Shown: positions 5,150 through 61,695, counted from the stretch's first letter. The stretch is DNA of 64,000 nt from Dehalococcoidia bacterium (GCA_009692765.1 SHYQ01000002.1:12476-76475); one strand, 5' to 3'. Notes: generated from the sequence alone by a model not told the origin. Numbers and translations are program-made.

Positions 5150-5302
5150 GAGCGCGAGGGCGTTCCGCCCATTCGTGGCTACCGCGGCGCCTTTCGTGGC
5201 TCCGTTCCGTCCCGGCGTGCGCCTGCCGCGCACACCTCCGCCGGGAGCGCGAGGGGCGCAGTCCTCCCGCGCAGGGAGGGGGCAGGGGGTGGGCGCCCCA
5301 CA
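5150..5302. repeat. intergenic hairpin-repeat block (modules D, B, C in reverse orientation)
   Basis: Contains CCATTCGTGGCTACCGCGGCG...CCGGCGTGCGCCT, CCGGGAGCGCGAGGGGCGCAG and CGCGCAGGGAGGGGGCAGGGGGTGGGCGCCCC, all shared with other loci. Confidence 0.75.
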
Positions 5303-5327
5303 CAGCACCTCTCGCCCACGCGGGCGC

Positions 5328-5333
5328 TACGAT
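5328..5333 (+). promoter_or_regulatory. candidate -10 hexamer TACGAT, 7 nt upstream of the ogt GTG (leaderless-type)
   Basis: TACGAT-N7-GTG. The same geometry recurs at four other genes in the window. Confidence 0.35.
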
Positions 5334-5340
5334 CGGGCGC

Positions 5341-5910
5341 GTGACGTACTACGACACGATCGAATCCCCCGTCGGCACGCTCTTCGTGGGCGGTTCAGCC
5401 GTCGGCGGCTCCGCGGCCGGCGTGCACCGCGTCGAGTTCGTGCGCGAAGCCGCAGACCTCGCGCGGTGGATCACCGCGATCGAACGCGACGCCGGCGCGG
5501 ACGTCGAGGATGGCCCGGCGCGGCGCGATAGCGCGGCCGCTGCCGAGGTGACGCGGCAGCTGCGCGCCTACTTCGCCGGCGAACGCGCCACCTTCGACCT
5601 GCCGCTCGCACCCCGAGGCACGGCGTTCCAGCAGCGCGTCTGGCTGGCGCTGCGCGCGATCCCGCACGGGCGCACCACCACCTACGGGGCGATCGCGGCC
5701 GCGATCGGGCAGCCCTCGGCGGCGCGCGCGGTCGGGCTCGCGATCGGGCGCAACCCGCTGGCGATCGTCGTGCCATGCCACCGCGTGATCGGCGCGGGGG
5801 GCGCGCTCACCGGCTACGCCGGCGGCCTCGACCGCAAGCGCTGGCTGCTCGCGCACGAAGGCGGCGCGCCGGCGCAGGCGGCGCTGCCCGCGCTCCTCGA
5901 GGCTTCGTAG
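5341..5910 (+). CDS. ogt: methylated-DNA--protein-cysteine methyltransferase (O6-alkylguanine repair)
   Basis: FQQRVWLALRAIPHGRTTTYGAIA...NPLAIVVPCHRVIGAGGALTGYAGG, with the PCHR active-site motif. Start GTG at 5341. Confidence 0.9.
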   Translation: MTYYDTIESPVGTLFVGGSAVGGSAAGVHRVEFVREAADLARWITAIERDAGADVEDGPARRDSAAAAEVTRQLRAYFAGERATFDLPLAPRGTAFQQRVWLALRAIPHGRTTTYGAIAAAIGQPSAARAVGLAIGRNPLAIVVPCHRVIGAGGALTGYAGGLDRKRWLLAHEGGAPAQAALPALLEAS

Positions 5911-5915
5911 TGGCG

Positions 5916-6338
5916 ATGAGCGCGGCGCGCCGCGTCACCGATCGCGTGTTCCGCCTGTGCGGTGTCGTCGCGCTGGTCGCGCTCGCCGCGACGGCCGCGT
6001 CGCTGGCGAGCGGGATCAGCGCGTGGCGCGTCCCCTTCGTGGCGGCGCACCTCGCGGCACTAATCGCGCTCGCGCCGCTGGGTGTGGTGCTCGCCGTCGA
6101 GGCGATCGCAGCGGCGCGTGTCGAGGCGGGGTCGCTCGCCGGCGTCCCGGCCGCCCTTGTGCGCCGGCGTCCCGTCGAGGTCACGCTGCTCGCGGTGGTC
6201 GCCGTCTCGATCGTGGTGTCGCTCGCGACGAACTTCTCAGAGGGCGCGCGGTGGGTGCGCACGACCGCCAACCTCGTGTCGGTCGCGGTCATCCTCGTGC
6301 TGGTGGCGCGCTACTTGCGCGCCGGGCGCGGAGCCTGA
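5916..6338 (+). CDS. hypothetical multi-pass membrane protein
   Basis: About 4 hydrophobic helices and no recognised family. Start (ATG 5916 or GTG 5910) abuts the ogt stop. Its last 35 bp are duplicated at 6957-6992. Confidence 0.5.
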   Translation: MSAARRVTDRVFRLCGVVALVALAATAASLASGISAWRVPFVAAHLAALIALAPLGVVLAVEAIAAARVEAGSLAGVPAALVRRRPVEVTLLAVVAVSIVVSLATNFSEGARWVRTTANLVSVAVILVLVARYLRAGRGA

Positions 6339-7335
6339 CGCGTGTCGAGGTGCTGCGCGGGAGGGGGAACCCTCACCCCCGGCCCCTCTCCCGCTTCGCG
6401 GGAGGGGGGAGTCAGAAATCAGAAGGTGATGCGAGGGGGCTGCGCCCCTCGCGCTCCCGGCGGAACGGCGCGCGGTAGGCGCCCCTACGGCGAGGTGGGA
6501 GCGGCCGGCGTCGAGGTGCTGGAGGGTGAACCCTCACCCCTGGCCCCTCTCCCGCGAAGCGGGAGAGGGGAGTCAGAAATCAGAAGGTGATGCGAGGGGC
6601 TGCGCCCCTCGCGCTCCCGGCGGAACGGCGCGCGGTAGGCGCGCCTGCGGCGAGGTGGGAGCGGCCGGCGTCGAGGTACTGCGCGGGAGGGGGAACCCTC
6701 ACCGCCGGCCCCTCTCCCGCTTCGCAGCAGAGGGGAGTCAGAAATCAGAAGGTGATGCGAGGGGGCTGCGCCCCTCGCGCTCCCAGCGGAACGGCGCGCG
6801 GTAGGCGCCCCTACGGCGAGGTGGGAGCGGCCGGCGTCGAGGTGCGGATGGGGGAAACCTCACCCCCGGCCCCTCTCCCACTTCGCAGGAGAGGGGAGTC
6901 AGAAATCCGCAGGTGATGCGAGGGGGCTGCGCCCCTCGCGCTCCCGGCGGAACGGCGCGCTACTTGCGCGCCGGGCGCGGAGCCTGACGCGCGTCGAGGT
7001 GCTGCGCGGGAGGGGGAACCCTCACCCCCGGCCCCTCTCCCGCTTCGCAGGAGTGGGGAGTTAGAAATCAGAAGGTGATGCGAGGGAGCTGCGCCCCTCG
7101 CGCTCCCGGCGGAACGGCGCGGGTAGGCGCGCCTACGGCGCGGGGGAGCGGCCGGCGCGCGGCGCCATCGAGCCGCATGGCGTGGTGCGCCCTCACCCTG
7201 CCCTCGCCCACTGCGTGGGCGAGGGTTCTGATCGGATCTGGCCCCCTCTCCTGCGGAGCGGGAGAGGGCGGGGGGTGAGGGCGCACCACGCCACGCCCCC
7301 GTATGAGCAGCGGCAGCGACGAACAGGCCGAAGGC
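6305..7335. repeat. tandem array of five ~160-bp composite hairpin-repeat units plus a nested-palindrome module
   Basis: Units start with GTCGAGGTRCTG at 6344, 6510, 6670, 6836 and 6993 (periods 166, 160, 166, 157). Each unit is module A plus TCAGAAATCAGAAGGTG plus module B. Module E lies at 7179-7292. Confidence 0.9.
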
Positions 7336-13639: not shown

Positions 13640-13955
13640 GCGCGCGGGAGGGGAGCCCTCACCCCCGGCCCCTCTCCCGCCAAGCGGGAGAGGGGAGGAA
13701 GACAGAGATCATGGGGGGCTGCGCCCCCCACACCCCGGCGGAACGGCGCGCGGTAGGCGCGCCTCGCGGAAGGCACCCTGCGGCCGGCACGCGAGTCGGC
13801 CCCGCGCGCGAAGCGCCGAGGCGGACTCCCCCTTCCCGGAGGGAAGGGGGCCGGGGGGATGGGCGATCATCTCTCTCTGACTCCCCTCTCCCGCGAAGCG
13901 GGAGAGGGGCCGGGGGTGAGGGTTCCGCCCGCCCGGTCAGTCCTCGACGCGTGGC
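13640..13955. repeat. MITE-like composite repeat with inverted module A termini
   Basis: Module A forward at ~13656 and reverse at ~13881. The two are inverted copies over about 55 nt. Module B and a C variant lie between them. Ends with CCTCGAC. Confidence 0.85.
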
Positions 13956-16800: not shown

Positions 16801-16880
16801 CGATCCCGCCCCGCTTCCGTTCGCCTGCCGCCCGCAGGGGCGCGGGGTGTGGGGCGGCCTTCGGCGGGTTCGCCCTGGTG

Positions 16881-16937
16881 CCCGAGTATCCGCTTAGGGC
16901 CCGAATATCCGCCTAGGGCCCGAATATCCGCCTAGGG
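16881..16937. repeat. 3 x 19-bp tandem direct repeat CCCGARTATCCGCYTAGGG overlapping the argC stop
   Basis: Units at 16881-16899, 16900-16918 and 16919-16937. The last two are identical. The last unit contains the argC codons Pro-stop. Confidence 0.9.
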
Positions 16938-18654: not shown

Positions 18655-19195
18655 AGGGCTGACGTCGCGCGCGTCGAGGTGCTTGCGACGGGGCGGCCCC
18701 CCGCCCCCTCCTGGCGCGGGACGCGGAACCCTCACCCCCGGCCCCTCTCCCGCTTCGCAGGAGAGGGGAGTGAGCAGTCAGAAGGGTGGTGCGAGGGTGC
18801 TGCGCCCCTCGCGCTCCCTGCGGAGGCGTGCGCGTAAGGCGCACGCCGGAGGGGAGACGGAGCCCCGAGCCGCGTCGCGGCAGCCACGAACGGGCGGAAC
18901 GCCCTCGCGGTTCCGGCGGGACGGCGCGCGGTGGGCGCGCCTCGGAAGAGAGGGCGGCGCACTCCCTCCTCGACGCTTCGCGCGAGGGCGGAATGGGCAC
19001 CGCGAACGACCCCCTGCGGTGGCCGGTGAGTCGCGCACGCCGTGCGAGGCGGAGCGGAGCGACGCTCTCGCGACATCCCCTCCTGGAAGGAGGGGGCCGG
19101 GGGGAGGTTGACCCTCCTTCCGAAGCTCAGAACCCCCTCCCGCGCCGGGAGCGGGCAGGGGGTGGGCCGCCCCGTCAGTCCTCGAAGCCACGCGT
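18655..19195. repeat. composite hairpin-repeat block (modules A, B, D-reverse, C variants)
   Basis: Starts CGTCGAGGTGC. Module A at ~18729. Reverse module D GGCGCACGCCGGAGGGGAGACGGAGCCCCGAGCCGCGTCGCGGCAGCCACGAACGGGCGGAAC. Reverse module C near 19135. Confidence 0.85.
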
Positions 19196-19502: not shown

Positions 19503-19808
19503 TCAAGATCGCCGGATCGTCGCCGTCAGCCCGTGCCGTTCGAGGCGGTCGCGGTACAGCTCCGCCCGTTCGAGGGGGCACGCGATGACGTCCGCCTCGC
19601 CGTGGTGGTGCGCGGCCAGCATCACCTCCACGGCGCGCTCGGCCTCGAGTTCGGGGACGCTGTCGAGCAGCGCGTGGACGACGTGCTCCATCGAGTTCAC
19701 GTCGTCGTTGTGCAGCACCACCGTCGCCGGCGGCAGCGTCTCCGCGATCGGGCGGAGGACGCCCGCGGGCGTCGCCGGGGGCCGCGTCGCGGGCGGTCGG
19801 GTGGTCAC
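19503..19808 (-). CDS. clpS: ATP-dependent Clp protease adaptor ClpS
   Basis: VVLHNDDVNSMEHVVHALLDSVPELEAERAVEVMLAAHHHGEADVIACPLERAELYRDRL. The GTG start overlaps the upstream stop (GTGA at 19805-19808). Confidence 0.85.
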   Translation of the reverse strand: MTTRPPATRPPATPAGVLRPIAETLPPATVVLHNDDVNSMEHVVHALLDSVPELEAERAVEVMLAAHHHGEADVIACPLERAELYRDRLERHGLTATIRRS

Positions 19809-20173
19809 GCCGTGTCCGTCTGCTCGACGACGGCCGACATCGAGCCCTTGCAGCGCGGGATGCGCGGGTCGGCGCCGTAGGCGTGCACCTGCGACTGCTT
19901 CGCCTCGCACGCCTCGCGCTCGCCGGTCATCAGCGTGACGCGCCCGTCGGTGTCCACGATGCGCGCGAGGGCGAACGCCTTGTCGCGCGCGTAGCCGAAG
20001 ACGTGCGCGAGCATCTCCAGCACGTACTCGTAGGTGTGGTCGTCGTCGTCGAGGAGCACCAGGCGCCAGAGCCGCGCGGGCTCCGGCCGCGGCGCCTCGC
20101 GCACCGTGCGCGTAGGCGTCGTCGAGGGGCGCGTCGAGGGCGTGACGGCGAGGGGAGACATTCGCGGCACCAT
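19805..20173 (-). CDS. ClpS-like adaptor paralog
   Basis: WRLVLLDDDDHTYEYVLEMLAHVFGYARDKAFALARIVDTDGRVTLMTGEREACEAKQSQVHAYGADPRIPRCKGSMSAVVE, a ClpS fold pattern of the second (ClpS2-like) type. Confidence 0.8.
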   Translation of the reverse strand: MVPRMSPLAVTPSTRPSTTPTRTVREAPRPEPARLWRLVLLDDDDHTYEYVLEMLAHVFGYARDKAFALARIVDTDGRVTLMTGEREACEAKQSQVHAYGADPRIPRCKGSMSAVVEQTDTA

Positions 20174-20184: not shown

Positions 20185-20880
20185 ATTCTGGGGCATCGTG
20201 CGCCCGCTGCGCGCGCTCTGTGCGGGAGCGTTCCGCCCGTTCGTGGCTGCCGCGACGCGCCTCGAGGCTCCGTCGCCCCTCCGGCGTGCGCCTACCGCGC
20301 GCCGTTCCGCCGGGAGCGCGAGGTGGTTCCCCCCTTCGTGGCTGCCGCGACGCGCCTCGGGGCTCCGTCTCCCGTCCGGCGTCCGCCTCGAGCGCACGCC
20401 TCCGCCCGTTCGTGGCTGCCGCGACGCGGCTCGGGGCTCCGTCTCCCCTCCGGCGTGTGCCTCACGCGCACGCCGGAGGGGAGCGCGAGGGGCGCAGCCC
20501 CCTCGCATCACACTTCTGACTGCTGACTCCCCTCTCCTGCGAAGCGGGAGAGGGGCCGGGGGTGAGGGTTCCGCCTCCCGCGCCGGGAGGGGGCAGGGGT
20601 GGGCCGCCCACCGCAAGTCCTCGACGCGCGCGAAGCACCTCCACAGGCTCCGTCTCCCCTCCGGCGTGCGCCTCACGCGCACGCCTCCGCCGGGAGCGCG
20701 AGGCGCGCAGCCCCCTCGCATCACATTCTGACTGCTGACTCCCCTCTCCTGCGAAGCGGGAGAGGGGCCGGGGGTGAGGGTTCCGCTTCCCGCGCCTCGC
20801 GGGGGCGGGGGGTGGCCGCCCCGCCGCACGGACCTCGACGCGCGCGGGGCCCCTGCGACCCATTGTCGCCCGCGCGGCAC
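20185..20880. repeat. largest composite repeat block: module D x3 in tandem plus a duplicated B-A-C segment
   Basis: Module D at ~20236, 20333 and 20406. The segment ~20455-20610 is repeated at ~20655-20825. Module A reverse at 20527 and 20739. Confidence 0.9.
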
Positions 20881-21940: not shown

Positions 21941-23130
21941 CGGGTATGGGCGGAGGCACCGGCACCCTCGACGCCCCTCTGGACGCGGAGATCGTGATCG
22001 TCGGCGCGGGCGTCGTCGGGCTCGCCATCGCGCAGCGGCTCGCCGCGGACGGCCGCTCGCTAGTGGTGGTCGAGCGGCACGAGGGCTTCTCGCGCGAAAC
22101 GTCCTCGCACAACAGCGGCGTGGTGCACGCGTCGATCTACTACGAGACCGGGTCGCTCAAGCACCGGCTCTGCTGGGAGGGCAACGCGCGCCTCTACGCG
22201 TGGGCGGACGCGCACTCCGTGCCCGTGCGGCGCACCGGCAAACTCATCGTGGCACTCGCCGAGGAGGAGCGCGCCGGCCTCGACGAGGTGTACCGGCAGG
22301 CGGTCGCGAACGAGGTGCGCGGCGTCGAGCGCATCACCGGCGCGCGCGCGCGCGCGCTGGAGCCGCACGTCCCCACCGTGGAGGCGGTGTGGTCGCCGAG
22401 CACCGGCGTCGTCGACGCGTACGCCCTCGCGCGGTCGTACGCGGCGGAGGCGCTCGCCCACGACGCGCTGATCGTCTACCGCCACACGCTCGTCGAGGCG
22501 GAGCGCGTGGCGGGCGGCTTCGCGCTGACGCTGCGCGACGCCGACGGTGCGACCTCGACGTTGCGCTGCGCGGCGCTGGTGAACAGCGCAGGCCTCGCCG
22601 CCGCGAGCGTCGCCGCGCTGCTCGGCTACCCCCTGGACGGTGGCGTGCTCGATGGCGTCTCCGACGTCGAGGCGCCGCTGCTGCGGCAGACGGCGAACCG
22701 TGGCCGCTACTACGACATCGTGGACGCCGCGGTCGCACGGCTCGTGTCGCGGCCGGTGTACCCGCTGCCGGAGCACGCCGCGGGCGGCCTGGGCGTGCAC
22801 CTCACCGTGGACACCGAGGGGGGACTGCACCTTGGGCCCGCGACGGAGTGGATGGCCGAGGACGAGCCGCTGGACTACCTCAACCTCGACGACGCAGAGC
22901 GCCGCGCGACGTTCCTGCGCGCGGGGCAGCGCTTCCTGCCCGCGCTGCGCGACGACCAGATCGCGCCGGGGCAGGTGGGCTACCGCCCGAAGGTGCAGCG
23001 GCCCGGCGAGGGCATCGCCGACTTCCTCGTCTGGCACGACCGCGGCTACGTGCACCTCGGCGGCATCGAGTCGCCGGGCCTCACGGCGAGCCTGCCGCTC
23101 GCCGACCTCGTCGCCGCAGCGTTAGGCTGA
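21937..23130 (+). CDS. FAD-dependent oxidoreductase, L-2-hydroxyglutarate oxidase (LhgO)-like
   Basis: IVIVGAGVVGLAIAQRLA (GxGxxG), ETSSHNSGVVHASIYYETGSLK, C-terminal GIESPGLTASL. The GTG overlaps the upstream stop (GTGA at 21937-21940); alternative ATG at 21946. Confidence 0.8.
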   Translation: MTGMGGGTGTLDAPLDAEIVIVGAGVVGLAIAQRLAADGRSLVVVERHEGFSRETSSHNSGVVHASIYYETGSLKHRLCWEGNARLYAWADAHSVPVRRTGKLIVALAEEERAGLDEVYRQAVANEVRGVERITGARARALEPHVPTVEAVWSPSTGVVDAYALARSYAAEALAHDALIVYRHTLVEAERVAGGFALTLRDADGATSTLRCAALVNSAGLAAASVAALLGYPLDGGVLDGVSDVEAPLLRQTANRGRYYDIVDAAVARLVSRPVYPLPEHAAGGLGVHLTVDTEGGLHLGPATEWMAEDEPLDYLNLDDAERRATFLRAGQRFLPALRDDQIAPGQVGYRPKVQRPGEGIADFLVWHDRGYVHLGGIESPGLTASLPLADLVAAALG

Positions 23131-23396
23131 CCGGGATGGGCCCACTCGAAGATCCCGGCCGGTTCTACTGACTGTGCTTCTCAGAGATGGCTCGCCGGGC
23201 TCGTCGCGTCGGCGCTCCGCTGAGGGCACCGCGAGCGACACGCCCCCGCTCGAGGAGTCTCGCCCTCGTCGCCACCTCGTCGCCGCGGCGCTAGGCTGTC
23301 GGGCATGGGCCCACTCGAAGATCCCGGCCGGTTCTAATGACTGTGCTTCTCAGAGATGGCTCGCCGACCTCGTCGCAGCGGCGTTAGGCTGAGGGC
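23098..23396. repeat. local tandem duplications of the junction between the oxidoreductase 3' end and a small-ORF 5' end
   Basis: CTCGCCGACCTCGTCGCNGCNGCGTTAGGCTGA recurs at ~23098, ~23193 (degenerate), ~23270 and ~23362. ATGGGCCCACTCGARGATCC recurs at 23136, ~23306 and 23397. Confidence 0.85.
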
Positions 23397-23510
23397 ATGG
23401 GCCCACTCGAGGATCCTGGGCGGTACTACTGGAAGTGGCTCGCCATCGGTGGGGGGCTGCTGATCGTCTACGCGATCGAGCGCACCATCCGCACCGGCGC
23501 GCTCTTCTAG
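23397..23510 (+). CDS. candidate 37-aa single-TM small protein
   Basis: MGPLEDPGRYYWKWLAIGGGLLIVYAIERTIRTGALF*. Not in the ORF track (too short). Two upstream duplicated 5' ends are truncated after 10-11 codons. Confidence 0.35.
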   Translation: MGPLEDPGRYYWKWLAIGGGLLIVYAIERTIRTGALF

Positions 23511-25228: not shown

Positions 25229-25230
25229 GG

Positions 25231-34785: not shown

Positions 34786-34787
34786 TC

Positions 34788-35470: not shown

Positions 35471-35538
35471 CTCGTGCGTCTGGCGTGGTGGCGTCTATGA
35501 CCCTCGCAGGGGACAGGCACGCGGCCCGCCGCGGCGAT

Positions 35539-39425: not shown

Positions 39426-39434
39426 CGCGCCCAC

Positions 39435-39712: not shown

Positions 39713-39718
39713 GCGCGC

Positions 39719-47398: not shown

Positions 47399-48109
47399 GT
47401 GACGAATCGACGTCCGCCGGCCGGCGAGGCCGAAGCGCCGCCCCCCGCGACGGCCCCCTCCGCGACGGCCGAGCGGTACCTCGAGGCGATCTTCTACATC
47501 GAGGGGGAGGGCGAGGCGGTGCACGCCTCGCGGCTCGCGGAGTGGCTCGGCGTGTCGCAGCCCACCGTGGGCGCGATGCTGCGGCGTATGGCGGCGGACG
47601 GCCTCGTGCGCACCTCGGCGGCGAAGGTGGTGACGCTGGCGCCGCGCGGCGTGGCGCTGGCCTCGAGGATCGTGCGGCGGCATCGCATCGCGGAGCGCTG
47701 GCTGACGGACGTGGTCGGCCTCGACTGGGCGGCGGCGGACGACGAGGCGAGCCGTCTGTCGCACGCGCTCTCGGACGCCGTCGCCGACCGCCTGTTCGAG
47801 TTGATCGGCCGCCCGACCGCGTGCCCGCACGGCAACCCCATCCCCGGCGTCGACGCGCCGCGCGGCGCGGAGCGCCCGCTCTCCTCGCTAGCCGCGGGCG
47901 AGCGCTCGAAGGTGCGCCGCATCTCCGAGGTCGCCGAGCACGAGGCGCCGGAGTTGCTGCGCTTCCTGGGCGGGCAGGGCTTCCGCATCGGCGTCGACGT
48001 GGAGGCCTCCGCGATCTCGCGCGGCGCCGGCACCTTCACCGCGCGCGTCGAGGGCAAGGACGTGCCGATGTCCCTCGACGTCGCGGGGCGCGTCTGGGTC
48101 GACGCGTGA
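47399..48109 (+). CDS. DtxR/IdeR/MntR family metal-dependent transcriptional regulator with FeoA/SH3-like C-terminal domain
   Basis: ERYLEAIFYIEGEG..., SRLAEWLGVSQPTVGAMLRRMAADGLV, RRHRIAERWL, ACPHGNPIP. SD GGAGGAAG precedes GTG 47399. Confidence 0.9.
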   Translation: MTNRRPPAGEAEAPPPATAPSATAERYLEAIFYIEGEGEAVHASRLAEWLGVSQPTVGAMLRRMAADGLVRTSAAKVVTLAPRGVALASRIVRRHRIAERWLTDVVGLDWAAADDEASRLSHALSDAVADRLFELIGRPTACPHGNPIPGVDAPRGAERPLSSLAAGERSKVRRISEVAEHEAPELLRFLGGQGFRIGVDVEASAISRGAGTFTARVEGKDVPMSLDVAGRVWVDA

Positions 48110-48114: not shown

Positions 48115-48480
48115 GTGTGCACGGGAGGGCGGACCCTCACCCCCGGCCCCTCTCCCGCGGAGCGGGAGAGGGGAGAGAAGGAGCAGATGATGCGAGGGTG
48201 CTGCGCCCCTCGCGCTCCCGGCGGAGGCGTGCGCGGCAGGCGCACGCCGGAGTGGGGGAACGGTGTGGGCGGGGGTTCAGAACAGGAGAACGTGATCTTC
48301 TCCCATCCCCCCAGCCCCCTTCCCTCGCGGGAAGGGAGAGTTCGCCTCGCGGGATCGGAGCACGCCGACTGCGCGCGTTCCGCGAGGCGCGGGGGCGGAG
48401 CCCCCACATCTCCGTTCTTCTCAGAACCCCCTTCCCGCGCAGGGAAGGGGGCAGGGGGATGGGCCGGCCCGCGCATTGCG
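48115..48480. repeat. hairpin-repeat block (A forward, B-like, D-like, C variants)
   Basis: GGACCCTCACCCCCGGCCCCTCTCCCGCGGAGCGGGAGAGGGGAG, ATGCGAGGGTGCTGCGCCCCTCGCGCTCCCGGCGGAGGCGTGCGCGGCAGGCGCACGCCGGAG, GAACCCCCTTCCCGCGCAGGGAAGGGGGCAGGGGGATGGGCCGGCCC. Confidence 0.9.
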
Positions 48481-49413: not shown

Positions 49414-50175
49414 ATGCAATGGACGAGTGACACGCCGATCGAGGGTGGCCTGCGCGAGCGGCGCTTCGATGCCGACCACGGCGCGGGGTCGGTGACGGGC
49501 GTGCTCTGGACGCGCGCGGGCGCGACCGGGCGCACGCCCCTCGTGCTCGTCGGGCACGGCGGCGGCAGCAACAAGCTCGGCCCGAACGTGATCGAGGCAC
49601 GCGACGCGTACGCGGCGCACGGCGTCGCGGTGGCCGCGATCGACGGGCCGCTGCACGGCGACCGCGGCCCCGTGACCGACTCGACTCAGCCTGAGTACGC
49701 CGCGATGTGGAAGCGGCCTTCTTTCGGCGACGGGGCGATCGTCGACGGGATGGTCGCCGACTGGCGCGCGAGCCTCGACGGGCTGCTCGCGACGGGCGAG
49801 TTCCTCGACGGCGCGGTCGGCTACCACGGCCTCTCGATGGGCACGATGTTCGGGCTGCCGTTCGTGGTCGCGGAGCCGCGCGTGGTCGCCGCGTCGCTCG
49901 GCCTGTGCGGCACCGGCGGATCCTCGATCGATCGCAGCGGCATCGGGCCGCGGCTGACGGCGGACGCCGCGAAGCTGCGCGTGCCGGTGCTCTTCCACTT
50001 CCAGTGGGACGACGAGCGCTTCTCGCGGGCCGGGTCGCTGGAGATGTTCGACCGCTTCCCGACCAACGATAAGCGCCTCCAGTCCACGCCCGGGATGCAC
50101 GCCGATACCTCCCCCGAGGCGAAAGCGGCGCTCGTGCGCTTCCTCGCGGAGCGGCTCGCGCTCGTCCACGCGTAG
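49414..50175 (+). CDS. alpha/beta hydrolase (dienelactone-hydrolase-like)
   Basis: LVLVGHGGGSNK, nucleophile elbow GLSMG, C-terminal PGMHAD. SD GAGGGAG precedes the start, with TATCAT upstream. Confidence 0.75.
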   Translation: MQWTSDTPIEGGLRERRFDADHGAGSVTGVLWTRAGATGRTPLVLVGHGGGSNKLGPNVIEARDAYAAHGVAVAAIDGPLHGDRGPVTDSTQPEYAAMWKRPSFGDGAIVDGMVADWRASLDGLLATGEFLDGAVGYHGLSMGTMFGLPFVVAEPRVVAASLGLCGTGGSSIDRSGIGPRLTADAAKLRVPVLFHFQWDDERFSRAGSLEMFDRFPTNDKRLQSTPGMHADTSPEAKAALVRFLAERLALVHA

Positions 50176-50184: not shown

Positions 50185-50340
50185 GGCGTGACCGCGCGTC
50201 GTCGAGGACGGCGACGGCGGCCCATCCCCCTGCCCCCTTCCCGGCGCGGGAAGGGGGTTCGGAAAAGAACAGAGATGTGGGGGCTGCGCCCCCACGCCCC
50301 GCGGAACGCGCGGGGTGCGTGACGTCGAGGACGGCGACGC
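50185..50340. repeat. single ~107-bp repeat element (C + B variant) flanked by a 16-bp perfect direct repeat
   Basis: GTCGAGGACGGCGACG at 50201-50216 and 50324-50339. Between them lie GGCGGCCCATCCCCCTGCCCCCTTCCCGGCGCGGGAAGGGGGTTC and GATGTGGGGGCTGCGCCCCCAC. Confidence 0.85.
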
Positions 50341-50447: not shown

Positions 50448-51404
50448 ATGACGAGCAACCAGCGAGTGACGATCGGCACGGTGATCGGCACCGCGCTGCT
50501 CGCGGTGGTCGGCGTGTGGTCGATCGCGTGGGTGGGAGCGGACGCGGCGCTGAAGCCCGATCCGCGACAGGACTCCCCGTTCCTCGCCGCGTACTCCTTC
50601 ACCGCGGAGGACGTCGCGTTCCCCGCGCGCGATGGCGCGCCGCTCGCGGGGTGGTTCGTGGCGGCGGCGCCGCCCCGCGGCGAAGCGCCGCTGCTCCGCC
50701 CCTCGCCGGTGATCATCCTCGTGCATGGCTACGGCGGGACGCGCGACACGATGCTCCCCGCGGCGGACATGCTGACGCGCGCGGGGATGCACGTGCTCAT
50801 CTTCGACCAGCGCGGCACAGGGCACTCGGGCGGCACGAACGTCACCTTCGGCGCGCGCGAGCCGCTCGATGTGATCGGCGCGCTCGACTACCTCGTCGGG
50901 CGGCCGGACGTCGACGCCGGGCGCGTCGGCGTGATGGGCGCCGGCATGGGCGGGTCGGTGGCGATCATCGCGGCCGCCGAGGACCCGCGCATCCGCGCCG
51001 TCGTGGCCGAGGCGCCGTACGCGTCGCTCGACGCGTCCCTTCAGGACGTGCTCGCCGACGGTGTGGGGCTGCCATCACTGCTGCGGCCGCTCGCGACGCG
51101 CATCCTGCGGTCGCGCATCGGCGATCCGCCGGAGGATCGCGCGCCGCTCGACGCTGCGGCACGCCTCGGCGACCGCCCGGTGATGCTGATCGCGGACACG
51201 CAGGCATCCACAGCGGGCACGGAGGCGATCCTCGCGGCCGTGGTGGGGCCGAAGGAGCTGTGGGTGGCCGTCGGCCGGACGCTGGGGTCGGAGACGAAGC
51301 AGGAGTACCCGCCCGAGTACACCTCCCGCGTCCTGGGCTTTTGGCGTGGCGTCTTCGAGCGTTCCGCCGCAACCTCGACCGCCCCGGCCGGCACCCCCCG
51401 GTAG
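50448..51404 (+). CDS. membrane-anchored alpha/beta hydrolase
   Basis: N-terminal TM (VTIGTVIGTALLAVVGVWSIAWV), ILVHGYGGTRD, nucleophile elbow GAGMGG. Confidence 0.8.
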   Translation: MTSNQRVTIGTVIGTALLAVVGVWSIAWVGADAALKPDPRQDSPFLAAYSFTAEDVAFPARDGAPLAGWFVAAAPPRGEAPLLRPSPVIILVHGYGGTRDTMLPAADMLTRAGMHVLIFDQRGTGHSGGTNVTFGAREPLDVIGALDYLVGRPDVDAGRVGVMGAGMGGSVAIIAAAEDPRIRAVVAEAPYASLDASLQDVLADGVGLPSLLRPLATRILRSRIGDPPEDRAPLDAAARLGDRPVMLIADTQASTAGTEAILAAVVGPKELWVAVGRTLGSETKQEYPPEYTSRVLGFWRGVFERSAATSTAPAGTPR

Positions 51405-51409
51405 GTCCC

Positions 51410-51560
51410 GATAGGACGGCGACTGCGGCCCCTCCCCCTGCCCCCTTCGCGGCGCGGGAAGGGGGTTCAGAACCAGAGGGTGACGCGAGGGGGCTGCACC
51501 CCTCGCGCGCCCGGCGGAGGCGTGCGCGGCGGGCGCACGCCGGAGCGCACCGGCACGCAG
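51410..51560. repeat. hairpin-repeat block (C forward, B/D-like forward)
   Basis: GCGGCCCCTCCCCCTGCCCCCTTCGCGGCGCGGGAAGGGGGTTC, GACGCGAGGGGGCTGCACCCCTCGCGCGCCCGGCGGAGGCGTGCGCGGCGGGCGCACGCCGGAG. Confidence 0.85.
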
Positions 51561-51564
51561 ACGC

Positions 51565-51606
51565 GGAGAGACCCCCGCGAGCCGTGAGGCTCGCGGGGGT
51601 CTCTCC
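51565..51606. terminator. perfect 19-bp-stem hairpin between convergent genes (terminator-like, no U tract)
   Basis: GGAGAGACCCCCGCGAGCC-GTGA-GGCTCGCGGGGGTCTCTCC. It lies 16 nt downstream of the minus-strand stop at 51623. Confidence 0.5.
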
Positions 51607-51622
51607 CGAACGCCAGGCGGGG

Positions 51623-52742
51623 CTAGCCGGCGTTCTGCTGTGGGGCGCCGAAGCCGCGCGCGGGCTTCTGGCTGTTGCCCGGGCCCTGCGACTCACGGCG
51701 GTCTTCGCGCCTGTCGTCACGGCGGTCTTCACGCTTGTCGTCACGGCGGTCTTCACGCTTGTCGTCACGGCGGTCTTCACGCTTGTCGTCACGGCGGTCT
51801 TCACGCTTGTCGTCGCGGCGGTCTTCGCGCCTGTCTTCGCGCCGGTTGTCGCGGCGGTCGTCACGCTTCGTGAAGTCCGCCGCGTCGAAGCGGTCCAGCA
51901 TGGCGTCGGCCTCGGCGCGCGTGAGCTTGCCGCTCTCGACCGCGCCCTTGAGGCGCTCGACCAGGTGGGCGCGCCTCGGTCTTCGCGTGCTCCGGGTCGA
52001 TGCGGTCGGGGCGCTCGCTGCTGTCGAGGCGCGCGAGCAACGCGTCGGCCTCGTCTTGCGTGATCTTGCCGCTCTCCACCGCCGCCTCGAGCCGCTCGAC
52101 GAGGTGCACGCGCGCCTCGGTCCTCATCTGCGCCCGGTCGGGCTGGCCCGCCTTGAGCGCCTCCTGCAACTTCGCGACGGTGACGCCCAGCTTCTCGGCC
52201 ACGGCGGTGAGCACCTTCAGCTCGAACGCGGCGCGCGCGGCCGGGTCGCGCATGGTCGCGGGGTCGGGCTTGCCGGCTGCCTCGCGGGCCGCCTGCATCG
52301 CGGCCTTGAGCGCCTCGGGCGTGACGCCGAGGACGTTCGCGACCGCCTCGAGGTGCCTGCCGCCGAAGTCGTGCAGACCGGGGACGCCAGGGCCGCGGCC
52401 GCGGCGGCCGTCGTCGCCGCGCTGCGGTCTGGCCGCGTCGAGGGCGGCCTGCACCTTCGCGACGTCGAGCTTGAGCGTGGCCGCGAGCGTCGCGAGGCGC
52501 TGCTTCTGGCCGGCCTCGTTCGCCGTCTCCATCGCCGCCGCGAGCGCCTCGGGAGTGACGCCGAGTGCCTTCGCGAGCGCCTCGAGGTGGTTGGTGCGTG
52601 GGGCGATCTGCGCCGCCGCCGCCGTGCCGGGGTGGCTCGATGCGCCGTCGTGGGCCATGACGGCCGTCGGCGTGACCGCGAGGCCGATCATCGCCGCCGC
52701 GGCGAGCCCGGCCCGGAGTGCGCGCTGCTGGGTTCCGAACAT
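51623..52742 (-). pseudogene. secreted helical-repeat protein with Arg/Asp/Glu-rich octapeptide-repeat tail, split by a frameshift near 51969
   Basis: Signal peptide ([17 protein letters not shown]). Repeats L(E/T)A(L/V)AxxLGVTPEAL and TEARVHLVERLEAAVESGKITQDEADALLARLD. The second copy, TEAR|HLVERLKGAVESGKLTRAEADAMLDRFD, continues only in the frame of the 92-aa ORF (51623-51901). Confidence 0.75.
51689..51868. repeat. 24-bp coding tandem repeat (GTCGTCACGGCGGTCTTCACGCTT), 4 perfect + at least 3 degenerate units
   Basis: Perfect units at 51713, 51737, 51761 and 51785. They encode KREDRRDD on the minus strand. Confidence 0.9.
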
Positions 52743-52916
52743 CTGCAGTCTCCTTCACCCTGGGTGGGGGTGGTTGTTGCGTTCGGTACTTCTAACGACG
52801 GGCCGCGCCCGGCGTTTGGGTCGGGTGGCTGCATGTGCCTCGATGTGGGGACACCGATCGTGATGGCTGCCGCCGGGCCCCATCTGCGATGATTCTCTCG
52901 CTGCGAGGATCCCCAC

Positions 52917-55618: not shown

Positions 55619-56515
55619 ATGGAGCGTCCGGAGCTGATCGTGCAGGAACCCATCGTGCAGGCGCCCGCCGCGCCGGAGCCGCAGCGGCGCGACTTCTTCC
55701 AGGTCGGGACGGCGAGCGGCCGCGTCGAGCGCGCCGAGCGCCGGGTGTCCGTGGCCGTCGAGGACGTCTCGGCGTGGTACGGCTCGAAGCTCGCCGTCGC
55801 GGGGGTGTCGTTCGAGGTCCTCGCGCACTCGGTGACCGCGCTGATCGGCCCGTCGGGCTGCGGCAAGTCGACGGTGCTGCGCTGCATCAACCGCATGCAC
55901 GAGATCAACGTTGGCGCCCGCGTCGAGGGCACGGTGCGCCTCGAGGGCGCGGACGTGTACGGGCCGAACGTGGACGCGACGCGCGTGCGCCAGCGCGTCG
56001 GGATGGTGTTCCAGAAGCCCAACCCCTTCCCCACGATGTCGATCGCGGAGAACGTCGCGGCGGGCCTGCGCTTCATGAAGATCGGCACCAAGTCCGAGGA
56101 GCGCGACCGTGTCGAGGAGGCGCTGCGGGCGGCGGCGCTCTGGGATGAGGTGAAGGACGACCTCAACAAGTCCGGGATGGCGTTGTCGGGCGGCCAGCAG
56201 CAGCGTCTCTGCATCGCCCGCACGATCGCGGTCGAGCCCGAGGTGGTGCTGATGGACGAGCCCTGCTCCGCGCTCGACCCGGTCGCGACGCTGAAGATCG
56301 AAGACCTGATGGCCGAGCTCGCGCAGCGCTACACGATCGTGATCGTGACGCACAACCTGCAGCAGGCGGCCCGCGTGGCGGACTACACGGGCTTCATCCT
56401 GCTGGAGCAGTCGGACAGCGCGGGGCACCTCATCGAATACTCGCCCACCTCCGACCTCTTCACGCACCCGCGCGACAAGCGCACGGAGGACTTCATCACC
56501 GGCCGCTTCGGCTAG
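55619..56515 (+). CDS. pstB: phosphate ABC transporter ATP-binding protein PstB
   Basis: Walker [10 protein letters not shown], signature [13 protein letters not shown], Walker B VVLMDEP, C-terminal [10 protein letters not shown]. The N-terminal ~45 aa extension leaves the start uncertain. Confidence 0.95.
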
Positions 56516-56524: not shown

Positions 56525-56940
56525 GCGCGGGGCGCTAACGAGGTTCCCCCGGGCCGTCGAGGCGCGCGCGGCGGGCGGCCCATCCCCCCTTCCCCCTTCC
56601 CCATCCCCCTGTCCCCTTCCCGGGGCGGGAAGGGGGTTCTGATGGAGAAGTGATGCGAGGGGGCTGCGCCCCTCGCGCTCCCCACGGAGGCGTGCGCAGC
56701 AGGCGCGCGCGGATGGGAGCGTGACGTTGCGATCGGAAGCCCCCTCCACGCACGGAGGGGGCAGACCTCGACGCCTCGCGCGAGGTTCGGCACGGGGGCC
56801 TGCCGCGCGCGTTCCGCCGGGGTGTGGGGGCGGCAGCCCCCACGATCTCCTCCGGACTCCCCTGTCCCGCGCGGCGGGAGAAGGGCCGGGGCCGAGGCTT
56901 CCCCTCCCGCGCCGACAACCGGTGCCCGCCTGCGCTCGCC
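56525..56940. repeat. composite repeat block (degenerate C, B, A-reverse variants)
   Basis: CCGTCGAGGCGCGCG..., GGCGGCCCATCCCCCCTTCCCCCTTCCCC..GGGGCGGGAAGGGGGTTC, GATGCGAGGGGGCTGCGCCCCTCGCGCTCCCCACGGAGGCGTGCGCAGCAGGCGCGCGC, degenerate A reverse GACTCCCCTGTCCCGCGCGGCGGGAGAAGGGCCGGGG. Confidence 0.8.
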
Positions 56941-59716: not shown

Positions 59717-60127
59717 TCAGCGGTGCGTGGGGTGCTCGGACGCGACGGTCTCCAGCGGCTGGTTCGCGGTGGTGAGGTGGACGATGCGCGGGTGGTGGGT
59801 GGCCACCGCCGCCGAGGGGATCCACTCGTACGTGAGCACGATCACCAGGTCCCCGGGGTGCACGAGGTGCGCGGCGGCGCCGTTGATGCAGACCTCGCCC
59901 GTGCCGCGGCCACCCGGGATCGCGTACGTCTCCAGGCGCGCCCCGTTCGTGATGTCCAGGACGTGGACCTGCTCCCACTCCTCGATGCCGGAGGCCTCCA
60001 TGAGGTTGCGGTCGAGCGTGATGGAGCCGACGTAGTCGAGGTTCGCGTCGGTGACGACCGCGCGGTGGATCTTGCCGCGCAGCACGGAGCGCAGCGAGGT
60101 GCGTTCGGAGTCCGGGGAGGAGGTCAT
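59717..60127 (-). CDS. panD: aspartate 1-decarboxylase
   Basis: VLRGKIHRAVVTDANLDYVGSITLD (self-processing Gly-Ser), NGARLETYAIPG..GSGEV-like, INGAAAHLVHPGDLVI. Confidence 0.95.
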   Translation of the reverse strand: MTSSPDSERTSLRSVLRGKIHRAVVTDANLDYVGSITLDRNLMEASGIEEWEQVHVLDITNGARLETYAIPGGRGTGEVCINGAAAHLVHPGDLVIVLTYEWIPSAAVATHHPRIVHLTTANQPLETVASEHPTHR

Positions 60128-60314
60128 CGGGTGGGCTTCCTGTCTCGGCCGGGAACGGTCCGAGCGGGCGTGTGTCTCCGGCCAATGATCACAGACCGCG
60201 GCGACCGCGTCCACCCGCAAGCATCCGGCGACCGCCAGCGTTGCTAGGATGAGCCGCCGAGGCCACCCGGCCTCACCGGCATCTGCCCTCGTCCGCCGTC
60301 CGAAGGAGCCCGCT

Positions 60315-60863
60315 ATGTCTCGACTCCCGCCCCTCGACCTGACCCGGCTCGATCCGGAGCAGCAGCGCGTCGCGGACGCCATCCGCTCCGGCCCGCGCGG
60401 CGCGGTGATCGGGCCGCTCGAGGTGTGGCTGCGCAGCCCCGGCCTCGCCGACCCGGCGCAGCGCCTCGGTGCGTTCTGCCGCTACCACAGCGCGCTGCCG
60501 TCGGAGCTGTCCGAGCTCGCGATCATCCTCGTCGGGAAGCACTGGCAGTCGGCGTACGAGTTCGCCGCGCACGCCCCCCTGGCGATCGCGGCAGGCGCGG
60601 GCGCGGCGGTCGTCGAGGCGATCCGCGCGGGGACGCCGCCGCCGTACACGGACGCGCGCGCGGCGGCGATCCACGCGCTCGTGACGGAGTACCTCTCGAC
60701 GCACGCGGTCGCGGACACCACGTACCAGCGCGCGGTGGAGTTGCTCGGCGAGCGGGGCGTCGTCGATCTCGTCGGGATCATCGGCTACTACTGCCTGATC
60801 TGCGTGACGCTCAACGTGTTCGAGGTGCCGCTGCCCGAGGGCACGATCGCGCCGGTGCTCTAA
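60315..60863 (+). CDS. carboxymuconolactone decarboxylase (AhpD-like) family protein
   Basis: LSELAIILVGKHWQSAYEFAAHAPLA... and VDLVGIIGYYCLICVTLN. SD GAAGGAG precedes ATG 60315. Confidence 0.75.
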   Translation: MSRLPPLDLTRLDPEQQRVADAIRSGPRGAVIGPLEVWLRSPGLADPAQRLGAFCRYHSALPSELSELAIILVGKHWQSAYEFAAHAPLAIAAGAGAAVVEAIRAGTPPPYTDARAAAIHALVTEYLSTHAVADTTYQRAVELLGERGVVDLVGIIGYYCLICVTLNVFEVPLPEGTIAPVL

Positions 60864-60947
60864 CCGGGACGTCGAGGCGCGCGTTTCGCCTCGCGCGCCG
60901 CACGGCTAGGATGGCGGCGCACCCAGGACGGATTCGAGAGGACGGCC

Positions 60948-61316
60948 ATGACGCTCAAGATCATCCACGCGCACGAGGGTGAGATCGCGAACCGCACGGG
61001 ACAGCCCATCTTCGAAGGCGACGTGCGCGGCCGCACGATCGTCGACGCGACGTTGAGCGAGCACGTGGCGGCCTCGTACGTGCACTTCCAGCCGGGCGCG
61101 CGTACGCGCATGCACCGGCACACGAGCGATCAGCTGCTCGTGATCACGGGCGGCGTCGGGCAGGTCGGCGACACGCACGGCGACCACACCGTCGCCGCCG
61201 GCGACTGCGTCTTCATCCCCGCGAACGAGGATCACTGGCACGGCGCCGGCAACACCGGCTTGCCGATGGTGCACATGACCGTGACGCTCGCCAGCAGCCA
61301 GACGACCGTCCTCTAG
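60948..61316 (+). CDS. cupin domain protein
   Basis: YVHFQPGARTRMHRHTSDQLLVITGGVGQVG......GDCVFIPANEDHWHG (two-motif cupin His ligands). Confidence 0.85.
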   Translation: MTLKIIHAHEGEIANRTGQPIFEGDVRGRTIVDATLSEHVAASYVHFQPGARTRMHRHTSDQLLVITGGVGQVGDTHGDHTVAAGDCVFIPANEDHWHGAGNTGLPMVHMTVTLASSQTTVL

Positions 61317-61324
61317 GGTCTTCG

Positions 61325-61695
61325 ACCCGTTCGTGGCTGCCGCTGCTCGCTGCGGACCGGCCAGGACTGAGTGGGGCGGCCCGCCCCCTGCCCTCTCGCG
61401 GGCGGCCCACCCCCTGCCCCCTCCCTGCGCGGGAGGGGGTTCTGAGATCAGAAGGGGATGCGAGGGGGCTGCGCCCCTCGCGCTCCCGGCGGAACGGCGC
61501 GCGGTAGGCGCGCCTCGGACTTCGCGCGAAGCGCCGAAGCCGGACTCCCCCTTCCCGCCAGGGAAGGGGGCCGGGGGGATGGGAGAAATCTCATCCCTCT
61601 TCAGAACCCCCTCCCGCGCAGGGAGGGGGCAGGGGGTGGGTCGCCCCCCGCAGCCACCTCGACGTCCGCCCGGCCCTCGCGGCTCCGCTCCGCGC
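61325..61695. repeat. composite repeat block (D-like, C forward, B forward, C variant, C reverse)
   Basis: GGCGGCCCACCCCCTGCCCCCTCCCTGCGCGGGAGGGGGTTC, GATGCGAGGGGGCTGCGCCCCTCGCGCTCCCGGCGGAACGGCGCGCGGTAGGCGCGCC, GACTCCCCCTTCCCGCCAGGGAAGGGGGCCGGGGGGATGGGAGA. Ends CACCTCGAC. Confidence 0.9.

Follow-up and report, generated by a model that had tools for sequence, protein, structure and literature searches.

The GC-rich intergenic repeats located between positions 5,150 and 61,695 of a 64,000-nt stretch of Dehalococcoidia bacterium DNA (GCA_009692765.1 SHYQ01000002.1:12476-76475, hereafter the window) are confirmed as genuine, and three of their recurrent modules (A, C and E) are, judged by sequence, variants of the E. 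coli intrastrand-triplex motif that goes by the names BoxC, PIT and TMECO. This motif is known and widespread; new here are its fusion to hairpins that apparently occur in this lineage only and its placement, mostly in one orientation, just after genes.

Allowing up to 3 mismatches, the 25-mer of module A (CCCTCACCCCCGGCCCCTCTCCCGC) is matched 16 times in the window, 12 times exactly; the expected number is 0. Its forward coordinates in the first-pass annotation of this DNA proved exact in every case; the reverse copies exist too, lying ~17 nt to the right of the numbers reported because these referred to the start of the hairpin and not to that of the 25-mer. Each of the modules B to E emerged as a repeat family, and the left edge GTCGAGG(T/A) belongs to the repeated unit. 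By self-BLAST, 5.8 kb of the window is repeated sequence, of which this family makes up ~5.0 kb (~8% of the window, so that the earlier estimate of a tenth was slightly generous). We count 17 intergenic loci in place of 18, with 10 of the 17 convergent (previously 11 of 18), 2 divergent and 5 co-directional. The loci overlap genes of the window gene map by at most 34 nt, in agreement with the proposed confinement to intergenic DNA, and the description of a modular, BIME-like mosaic of structured GC-rich units is upheld. The whole window is 70-78% GC and the genome 73% GC, which could make the repeats look like an artefact of composition; with 0 matches expected in shuffles, sharp unit boundaries, and the same core standing as a GC island inside viral contigs of 36-37% GC, this is next to impossible, and the shuffled-sequence controls rule it out.

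On the C-rich strand the core consists of a C-rich 'third strand' block, a 2-nt turn, a mirror-image pyrimidine arm, a loop and a complementary purine arm. This three-part motif occurs 35 times in the window and not once in 20 composition-matched first-order Markov controls. Three alleles (A, C1 and C2) are present in addition to inverted pairs (E), module E being an inverted pair of two different triplex motifs with copies at 7174-7290 and 26970-27085. In module A the turn is GCCGG and the 7-nt loop contains a GC clamp. The lengths of the runs mirror one another, as 3-4/5-3 in A and as 3-5-5-3 in both C1 and C2; interruptions in the mirrored blocks correspond in kind (TCT to TCA, T to A and TT to AT); and in the window and ~135 foreign loci a mirror block flanks nearly every homopyrimidine hairpin on one side. 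The paired-arm change described earlier for module C (CCCCCTCCC/GGGAGGGGG versus CCCCCTTCCC/GGGAAGGGGG) was confirmed, and it takes in the third block as well (CCCACCCCC versus CCCATCCCCC). Since the three blocks vary in concert across at least five sequence types, the conserved unit is three-part, more than a hairpin; the claim that the hairpin itself is maintained is right in that a structure is maintained, but the unit is a three-block mirror-plus-inverted repeat and not a simple hairpin. The A, C1 and C2 sequences would be candidates for triplex formation, and, as far as sequence can tell, this natural co-variation test over three alleles points to a triple helix more than to a plain hairpin or to a G-quadruplex (G4).

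The modules had been described as recurring in varying order; the alignment of 20 units, with its conserved module boundaries, shows instead a fixed syntax: [C][A or C], A-rich spacer, B1, B2, then optional D. The core is here joined to the spacer plus two hairpins, B1 and B2 (or B2v), with an optional D'. B2 and B2v differ by compensatory pairs (GC/CG 13:7 and CG/UA 12:7). The unit measures 161 nt, is repeated 4.9 times in tandem at 6360-7157, and folds into three hairpins. The features of the family are listed below.

5153-5298, minus strand: divergent gap; one unit with the C1 triplex motif, a degenerate B1, B2v and a partial D'.
6339-7157, plus strand: five tandem 161-nt units (GTCGAGG leader, A, A-rich spacer, B1, B2) immediately 3' of the stop codon of gene 5910-6338.
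6959-6990, plus strand: within the array, a copy of the final ~40 nt of gene 5910-6338 with its TGA stop; junction at the microhomology GGCGCGC.
7174-7290, no strand assigned: module E, an inverted pair of unlike triplex motifs, closed by a 20-bp inverted repeat (GGCGTGGTGCGCCCTCACCC / GGGTGAGGGCGCACCACGCC).
13642-13935, both strands: convergent gap; plus, A, B1-variant and B2 behind the plus-strand gene; minus, C2 and A behind the minus-strand gene.
18666-19184, both strands: convergent gap; plus, (C1-like), A, B1, B2v, D' and B2; minus, a triplex-motif variant (19076-19108) and C1 (19126-19184).
20228-20846, minus strand: divergent gap; two C1-A-B1-B2v units, then three D' copies.
25095-25231, plus strand: one clean A-spacer-B1-B2 unit; three hairpins on folding.
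26970-27312, no strand assigned: a module E copy (26970-27085); minus, a C1-B1-B2-B2 unit behind minus-strand gene 27367-28023.
32482-32595, minus strand: module A and a C2-type triplex motif behind minus-strand gene 32622-33050.
34237-34780, both strands: convergent gap; plus, C2 with a T-rich tail, a B1-variant hairpin and a partial E; minus, two units spaced exactly 198 nt apart.
35266-35478, both strands: plus, C1-B1-B2, among the few antisense-placed units; minus, a partial E.
39435-39715, both strands: convergent gap; plus, a C-type motif with a T-rich tail and a B1-variant; minus, C1-A-B1-B2.
41904-42266, both strands: convergent gap; plus, C2 with a T-rich tail and a B1-variant; minus, C1-A-B1-B2v.
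48118-48470, both strands: plus, A-B1-B2v behind gene 47399-48109, and a C2-like motif; minus, C2-spacer-B1-variant.
50204-50312, plus strand: C2, A-rich spacer and a B1-variant hairpin behind gene 49492-50175.
51413-51545, plus strand: a C2-B1-B2v unit behind gene 50466-51404.
56576-56912, both strands: plus, C2-B1-B2v behind gene 55619-56515; minus, a degenerate A-like motif and a B1-variant.
61321-61663, both strands: convergent gap; plus, a D fragment, C1, C1, B1 and B2; minus, a C2-type motif (61548-61583) and C1 (61607-61640).

BoxC, the PIT elements and TMECO are the same element (Bergler 1992; Hoyne & Maher 2000, 2002; Holder et al. 2015, PMC4666352), and CD, NMR and footprinting have established that TMECO forms a triplex (PMC4666352). 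Module A is built from the 9-mers of E. coli TMECO, CCCTCTCCC, GGGAGAGGG and GGGTGAGGG, as listed in Table 1 of PMC4666352 and as read directly in the hrpB-mrcB copy. The two families have in common these identical 9-nt blocks (CCCTCTCCC/CCCTCGCCC, GGGAGAGGG, GGGTGAGGG), carried here by A and E; the block order pyrimidine arm, purine arm, G-rich mirror (CCCTCNCCC ... GGGNGAGGG ... GGGNGAGGG); a type-B-like CCG/CCGG turn; a mismatch that recurs at the same triad; inverted pairs that combine two types, with module E matching type-A/type-B pairs such as E. coli hrpB-mrcB; and a strictly intergenic location without a linked transposase, phage or integrase gene (here, in the 64-kb window). TMECO loci are unusually rearranged between close strains; gene coordinates and a duplicated gene end hint at an association with local rearrangement here too. 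The two families differ in the lengths of their parts: here GC-clamped stems of 10-12 nt go with a loop 1 of 7 nt and a turn of 2-5 nt. The published TMECO pattern allows N3-6 as the spacing of the arms and N3 ahead of the third block, and because of these loop and turn lengths it gives 0 matches in the window when applied strictly and 8 when relaxed (loops of 3-8 and 2-5 nt). In addition, two further alleles (C1 and C2) coexist here, the core is fused in fixed order to lineage-specific hairpins, it stands in a strong sense orientation behind genes whereas no strand bias exists in E. coli, and its density is 35 per 64 kb versus 23 per 4.6 Mb in E. coli. The first-pass annotation saw a resemblance to REP/BIME/BOX mosaics and could not name the family: the mosaic likeness stands, but A, C and E, by their match to BoxC/PIT/TMECO, belong to a family already described and named.

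Outside the window, the exact module A 25-mer with its hairpin arm is found at at least 120 loci in ~10 phyla, and the core of A also on plasmids and in viral contigs; the C2 core has so far been found elsewhere only in two AT-rich viral contigs. A 47-nt query from the module A consensus has matches of 90% identity in 569 E. coli genomes. Relatives at ~70% protein identity hold almost none of the repeats. Modules B and D were found neither in 120 foreign loci nor in two relatives, and outside the window only on three JGI metagenome contigs, so that they are, by all appearances, specific to this Dehalococcoidia lineage. The five recurrent modules of the first-pass annotation are therefore not equivalent: A and C are found in unrelated genomes, B and D are private to the lineage. 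Wherever the exact core occurs elsewhere, it is embedded in different, lineage-specific flanks. Its identity over ~10 phyla exceeds structural need, which hints at a sequence-specific partner or at horizontal spread. One could imagine the triplex core as a horizontally travelling, sequence-specific cassette, kept identical in ~10 bacterial phyla, plasmids and phages by a conserved recognising factor or copying mechanism, around which lineages built their own repeat families independently and which serves here as a strand-specific 3'-end insulator/terminator; we consider this unlikely.

The units are strongly oriented relative to the upstream gene, a feature absent from the first-pass annotation: 27 of the 35 motifs follow a co-oriented gene closely on its 3' side, as do 16 of the 20 units, or 11 of 14 when the units are counted by locus, a placement in which the C-rich strand is the mRNA strand and the G-rich strand mostly the template. 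Repeats occupy 10 of 13 convergent gaps versus 2 of 14 divergent ones (window gene map), which bears out the enrichment reported between convergent genes. In other phyla no sense preference is seen at 3' ends (35 sense versus 35 antisense, with a crude gene caller), so that the orientation rule could be a property of this organism or of the composite unit rather than of the core. Kaplan et al. 2016 (PMC5100583) likewise locate the E. coli copies between operons and near 3' UTRs. The 3'-sense placement in the window, together with the occupied convergent gaps, would suit selected transcription terminators or insulators, that is, gene-end hairpins that stop or pause RNA polymerase, with the A-rich spacer providing B1 with a U-rich tail on the opposite strand, so that the unit would shield the gene from convergent read-through. 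There are 13 terminator-like sites versus 3.2 expected (32-52 kb of the window), several being C2 hairpins with T-rich tails, which stand on the sense strand at 34257, 39462 and 41933; the antisense-strand tail of B1 has 5-9 T per 20 nt (background 13.7%), a weak terminator match. However, a sense-strand U-tract is missing from most units, most motif hairpins being followed by an A-rich tail, the E. coli elements showed neither terminator nor promoter activity according to Hoyne & Maher 2002 as cited in PMC4666352, termination needs neither five tandem copies nor copies in divergent gaps, and orthologous gaps in relatives function without units, all of which leaves a selected terminator or insulator function somewhat unlikely. 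It is far less probable that the units are genes for small structured RNAs or cis-regulatory RNA, or harbour a tiny ORF starting at the ATG that follows a Shine-Dalgarno-like purine tract (AGAAGGTGATG) upstream of B1. The three conserved hairpins and some compensatory change speak for an RNA, but folding z-scores are only -1.8 to -3.1, no promoter-like sites were found, head modules are swapped freely among copies, and an Rfam 15 covariance-model search gave 0 matches at the gathering score and at E-value ≤1 a single chance match, to a miRNA model (E-value 0.63). As for an ORF, third-position GC is ~70% (read by eye) versus 93-98% in real genes, and copies differ by frame-breaking 1-nt indels.

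Close strains appear to differ by whole units. A near-identical strain contig is 198 bp shorter at the 34237-34780 gap, the exact spacing of the two minus-strand units there, and at the 39435-39715 gap a near-identical strain contig has 61 nt versus 293 nt here, a 232-bp presence/absence difference; both comparisons are from gene coordinates, as are the short gaps at repeat sites in an 89%-identical relative, in which the 41904-42266 junction has only 57 nt. The end of gene 5910-6338, duplicated inside the array with a junction at microhomology, is a sign of duplication by recombination or slippage. Transposase, RAYT and integrase domains were found neither in the 50 predicted proteins scanned in the window nor in the precomputed annotation of its central 21 kb, in line with the absence noted earlier. 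Palindromic intergenic units mosaically arranged in either orientation, their recent lineage-specific expansion and the presence/absence differences among strains recall REP/REPIN-like elements, hairpins that would be recognised on single-stranded DNA and mobilised by a RAYT-type transposase (IS200-like HUH) whose gene lies in another part of the genome. With the REP/BIME/REPIN-RAYT systems of Enterobacteria and Pseudomonas the 20 units share mosaics of palindromic units with defined linkers outside genes, location at gene 3' ends and tandem expansion. REP elements stabilise upstream mRNA. REP sequences are, however, species-specific and RAYT-linked, while here the core is identical across phyla, a third mirror block is present and no RAYT was seen in the 64-kb window; unit ends show neither target duplications nor terminal inverted repeats (GTCGAGG... 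and ...GCGCGCCTCGGA are not inverted copies of one another), the duplicated gene end points to recombination instead, and Holder et al. (PMC4666352) never found transposase remnants near TMECO sites. Mobilisation by a RAYT is accordingly improbable. A MITE identity was rejected, as terminal inverted repeats are lacking and the polymorphic cluster has only 5-nt direct matches at the 232-nt spacing. Pneumococcal BOX (boxA-boxB-boxC) likewise has few short modules in variable copy number between genes, but there is no sequence or structural relation, and the E. coli 'BoxC' and pneumococcal boxC are alike in name only.

A switch between G4 and hairpin (or i-motif), in which the G4 rather than a triple helix competes with the hairpin as a regulatory or replication signal, also deserves consideration. 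The window contains 45 G4 motifs versus ~6 expected, 31 within triplex motifs and only 2 inside genes, and CD evidence of G4/hairpin switching exists for E. coli (PMC5100583) and for archaeal relatives (PMC8044849). The E. coli HPG1/HPG2 'G-quadruplex-hairpin-duplex switch' comprises the same sequences read as four G-runs and a 5' C-rich block, likewise intergenic, near 3' UTRs, between operons and often in opposite-strand pairs (PMC5100583); it is a structural reading, not a separate element, and the mirror co-variation seen here would favour the triplex. The recurrent PQS with an adjacent C-tract of Methanomicrobiaceae are also interspersed intergenic repeats near gene ends, able to form a hairpin, an antiparallel triplex or a G4, but they are archaeal, have the C-tract 3' of the G-runs and differ in sequence (PMC8044849). 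A G4 has no need of mirror symmetry, yet run lengths and interruptions are mirrored in every allele, and the G-rich strand is mostly template, so an RNA G4 would usually not be made; a G4 is compatible with the triplex and does not exclude it. We regard the switch as the sole explanation as rather unlikely.

On balance we lean towards non-coding mosaic repeats, in which a conserved BoxC/PIT/TMECO-type core is fused to lineage hairpins, spread by duplication and recombination and kept as 3'-end structures. On the G-rich strand a purine-motif triple helix could arise, with the adjacent G-block lying in the major groove of the hairpin; a G4 built from the same four G-runs would be the alternative. 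For the mode of spread and the effects on transcripts we infer that copies duplicate and recombine with one another, which adds and removes units without any enzyme from the window, and that the units probably work at the 3' end as stable hairpins by which a transcript is protected or delimited and convergent transcription kept apart. They would render their gaps unstable, and persist almost only directly 3' of stop codons and with the C-rich sequence in the mRNA, a position and orientation in which they would be tolerated.

BoxC/TMECO-type motifs have been on record since 1992. The window packs 35 of them into 64 kb, an unusually high density; here the motif is tied to gene 3' ends in a single orientation and close strains appear to differ by whole units. 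The repeats account for many spurious GC-rich "hypothetical proteins" in annotation and for MAG fragmentation at these loci in assembly. With the exact core present over many phyla, plasmids and viral contigs, the persistence of an identical 45-nt non-coding sequence becomes directly testable.

The first-pass annotation had claimed a modular family of GC-rich intergenic repeats, and this family proved to be real. The 25-mer that forms the C-rich core of module A, and that is followed by a loop and a complementary hairpin arm, occurs in 16 copies at ≤3 mismatches (12 of them exact) in the 64-kb window against an expectation of 0 from dinucleotide-preserving shuffles, and all five modules (A to E) emerge as families in a repeat finder run on the window. 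Since the GC content is 70-78% across the whole window, third-position GC served to call genes, 63 in all; the family occupies 17 intergenic loci and overlaps coding sequence by at most 34 nt. One encoded protein, an aldo/keto reductase, has 100% identity to a protein that NCBI assigns to an uncultured Dehalococcoidia bacterium (Chloroflexota), which identifies the organism. Self-BLAST delimits 5.8 kb of repeated sequence, of which ~5.0 kb (~8% of the window) derives from this family, including a tandem array at 6360-7157 (161-nt unit, 4.9 copies; Tandem Repeats Finder). Convergent gaps account for ten of the 17 loci, and occupancy is 10 of 13 for the convergent gaps of the window versus 2 of 14 for the divergent ones. 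Three further repeats were observed:

51693-51866, minus strand: 24-nt tandem repeat, 6.4 copies, that reads in frame as a repeated charged octapeptide (DDKREDRR) and lies close to the end of a long minus-strand ORF (50965-52758) with weak HTH and sigma-like Pfam matches
23097-23431: 169-nt direct repeat, 2-3 copies, ~90% identical, between DAO oxidoreductase and methyltransferase genes, with nothing in common with modules A-E
16880-16937: 19-nt tandem repeat GCCCGAATATCCGCCTAGG, 3.1 copies, flanked by the beginning of an ECF sigma factor/FecR operon and by the asd 3' end, unusually A/T-rich for this genome

Alignment of the 20 composite units that contain hairpin B1 revealed a fixed module order, in which the head motif is interchangeable and the remainder of the unit is constant.

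Order of modules within a unit
1: GTCGAGG(T/A)-type leader
2: C1, optional
3: A, C1 or C2
4: A-rich spacer TCAGAAnTCAGAAGGTGATG
5: hairpin B1
6: hairpin B2 or its variant B2v
7: D' (reverse complement of module D), optional

B2 and B2v are separated by compensatory pairs (GC/CG, 13 versus 7 copies; CG/UA, 12 versus 7 copies), a difference that is essentially a single subfamily split and is shallow, the units being very similar. A folded unit contains three hairpins, whose z-scores of -1.8 to -3.1 are as modest as the GC content of the window would lead one to expect, and Rfam returned no relevant match at the gathering score or at an E-value up to 1. A small ORF following an SD-like ATG was rejected on account of its low third-position GC and frame-breaking indels.

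On their C-rich strand, modules A and C are built alike: a C-rich block is joined by a 2-nt turn to its own mirror image, and a loop then leads into the complementary, G-rich arm. Searching for three 9-nt blocks related in this way, with no more than one mismatch allowed per relation, gave 35 instances in the window and 0 in twenty first-order Markov simulations. In module E, two three-block motifs stand in inverted orientation to each other, and a 20-bp inverted repeat closes the pair.

Alleles of the three-block core
A: third block CCCTCACCCC; pyrimidine arm CCCCTCTCCC; purine arm GGGAGAGGGG
C1: third block CCCACCCCC; pyrimidine arm CCCCCTCCC; purine arm GGGAGGGGG
C2: third block CCCATCCCCC; pyrimidine arm CCCCCTTCCC; purine arm GGGAAGGGGG

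The paired-arm change noticed earlier in module C was borne out: its "Y" position is not noise, because both arms change with it. The same regions are rich in G-quadruplex motifs (45 in the window versus ~6 expected, 31 of the 45 in triplex-motif regions and 2 in genes). Among all perfect homopyrimidine hairpins of the window and of ~135 loci in other genomes, a mirror block flanks exactly one side of the hairpin in 108 of 111 cases (A arm), 12 of 12 (C2 arm) and 7 of 7 (C1 arm). At least five arm types are represented, and in each the interruptions mirror one another in position; as copies of the same type are non-independent, this co-variation amounts to about five observations. Mirror symmetry of this kind is required by a purine-motif triple helix, and not by a hairpin or a G-quadruplex alone.

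The core is of a kind that already has a name and has been studied before. TMECO (Holder et al. 2015), the intrastrand triplex motif of E. coli known earlier as BoxC and PIT elements, has the pattern CCCTCNCCC-N3-6-GGGNGAGGG-N3-GGGNGAGGG with type A (TTA) and type B (CCG) turns; its 3610 copies across 262 proteobacterial genomes are always intergenic, without a linked transposase, the two types occur as inverted pairs, the motif is associated with rearranged loci, and the triplex has been demonstrated by CD, NMR and footprinting (PMC4666352). Module A has the identical three 9-mers together with a type-B-like turn; we read the E. coli hrpB-mrcB copy directly. A 47-nt module-A consensus query carrying the AAG-type loop (the commonest in foreign genomes) has matches of 90% identity, unannotated there, in 569 complete E. 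coli genomes. The strict published pattern has 0 matches in the window and relaxed loop lengths give 8; the motifs of the window are therefore variants, whose stems are longer than those of TMECO, which have a GC clamp and in which the turn is not the same. The same E. coli sequences have also been read as a G-quadruplex-hairpin-duplex switch that lies between operons, close to 3' UTRs (PMC5100583), and analogous repeats exist in methanogenic archaea (PMC8044849). The likeness to BIME mosaics proposed in the first-pass annotation stands; the core, part of a family that the annotation could not name, does have a name. New features are the mosaic into which the modules are combined, the extra alleles and a placement that is strand-specific.

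For 27 of the 35 motifs, the nearest gene end is a 3' end and the C-rich strand lies on the gene's own strand; two further motifs are inner members of the tandem array. Sixteen of 20 units (11 of 14 loci) lie behind a co-oriented gene, and convergent gaps tend to hold a separate unit for each gene. The motifs divide 17 versus 18 between the DNA strands, hence the orientation rule tracks transcription, not replication. Units behind genes may act as 3'-end stabilisers, terminators or insulators, or may merely be tolerated there. Terminator-like scores and sense-strand T-rich tails are found in three solitary C2 copies. We are cautious about a 3'-end role because most sense-strand hairpins are missing a U-tract (the spacer, the sole A/T-rich segment of the unit, is A-rich on the sense strand, which puts a U-rich tail after B1 on the antisense strand), because the copies of module A at 3' ends in other phyla favour neither orientation (35 sense versus 35 antisense; ~70 motifs near 3' ends versus ~32 near 5' ends, both rough figures from a crude GC3 gene caller), and because published tests (Hoyne & Maher 2002, as cited in PMC4666352) detected no terminator activity of the E. 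coli elements.

Units have probably been gained or lost recently. Two near-identical contigs (ENA sample ERZ1305449) encode the same proteins and were compared by gene coordinates: one is 198 bp shorter at gap 34143-34787, where the window has two units exactly 198 nt apart, and the same contig has a 61-nt gap versus the 293 nt of the window at 39426-39718. At the spacing of this 232-nt indel, no direct repeats longer than 5-mers were found. By gene coordinates, an 89%-identical relative has gaps of 57-76 nt at two junctions that are occupied in the window. A 136-aa ORF (34788-35198) without a Pfam match has repeat clusters on both flanks; the gene table of the same relative holds no equivalent, its esterase-CBS gap being 76 nt versus 1.4 kb in the window. 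The last ~40 nt of the upstream gene 5910-6338 (6310-6341), its stop codon among them, were copied into the tandem array at 6959-6990 (fourth/fifth unit) with a 7-nt microhomology (GGCGCGC) at the junction, which points to recombination or slippage between copies. In agreement with the earlier statement that no mobilising gene is present, Pfam scans of 50 predicted proteins and the precomputed annotation of the central 21 kb contain no mobility functions, only housekeeping ones. Two adjacent ClpS paralogues (19503-20104) and a stand-alone D12-class (Dam-like) adenine methyltransferase (1672-2673) with no adjoining restriction enzyme gene are also encoded. The best supported reading of these sequences is that the units are BIME-like mosaics, in which a BoxC/TMECO-type core is fused to lineage-specific hairpins. 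They would have expanded recently in this Dehalococcoidia lineage through duplication and recombination, and would be kept behind genes, oriented so that the transcript carries the C-rich strand.

Beyond the window, the core and the other modules part company. Modules B, C, D and E have 0 matches in 120 foreign module-A loci, hence the modules do not travel together. Module B has 0 matches in IMG/VR and 7 in JGI metagenomes, with real units on only three short contigs of one sample, the only ones in the collections searched to carry B and D. Both are absent from two relatives of ~70% protein identity (L121, L122); this pair has one degenerate module A, downstream of an aldo/keto reductase homologue, and no other module. 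In two viral contigs whose GC content is 36-37% (L138:106-150, L139:6020-6061), an exact copy of the C2 core, complementary arm included, stands out as an isolated GC island.

The exact 25-mer, by comparison, is present at no fewer than 120 loci in other genomes, which by organism name represent, among the matches listed, ~10 phyla (Pseudomonadota, Planctomycetota, Chloroflexota, Acidobacteriota, Gemmatimonadota, Verrucomicrobiota, Myxococcota, Deinococcota, Bipolaricaulota and Salinibacter). Among the same matches, the complementary arm follows in 151 of 156 foreign copies. Foreign units have sharp boundaries and flanks that vary by lineage, and a recurrent mismatch (GGGCGAGGGG opposite CCCCTCTCCC, 34 copies) falls at the same triad as in the E. 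coli "mm" types (PMC4666352). The motif occurs on 43 plasmid or chromid records, cyanobacterial included, and on 15 IMG/VR contigs, one of which has it flanked by terminase and portal genes; nothing in the GenBank phage collection matched module A. In the foreign loci (L001-L120) the core sits inside a larger repeat of the lineage's own, such as a GCGCGCTTCGCGCGC hairpin upstream of the core and a long loop in Longimicrobium, a GGTTAGC...GCTAACC hairpin downstream in Thermoanaerobaculia, and a GAGCAAACC tail in Cupriavidus. Three copies (L123:97-200, L123:1725-1830 and L125:2966-3070) carry a 42-nt loop insert, GCTGGTTTCGATATGGCTCGAAGACTCGCCTACTCAACCGAC, with the three-block frame intact. That the core is conserved exactly from phylum to phylum is not explained by structure alone, and this conservation is the most interesting point of the family.
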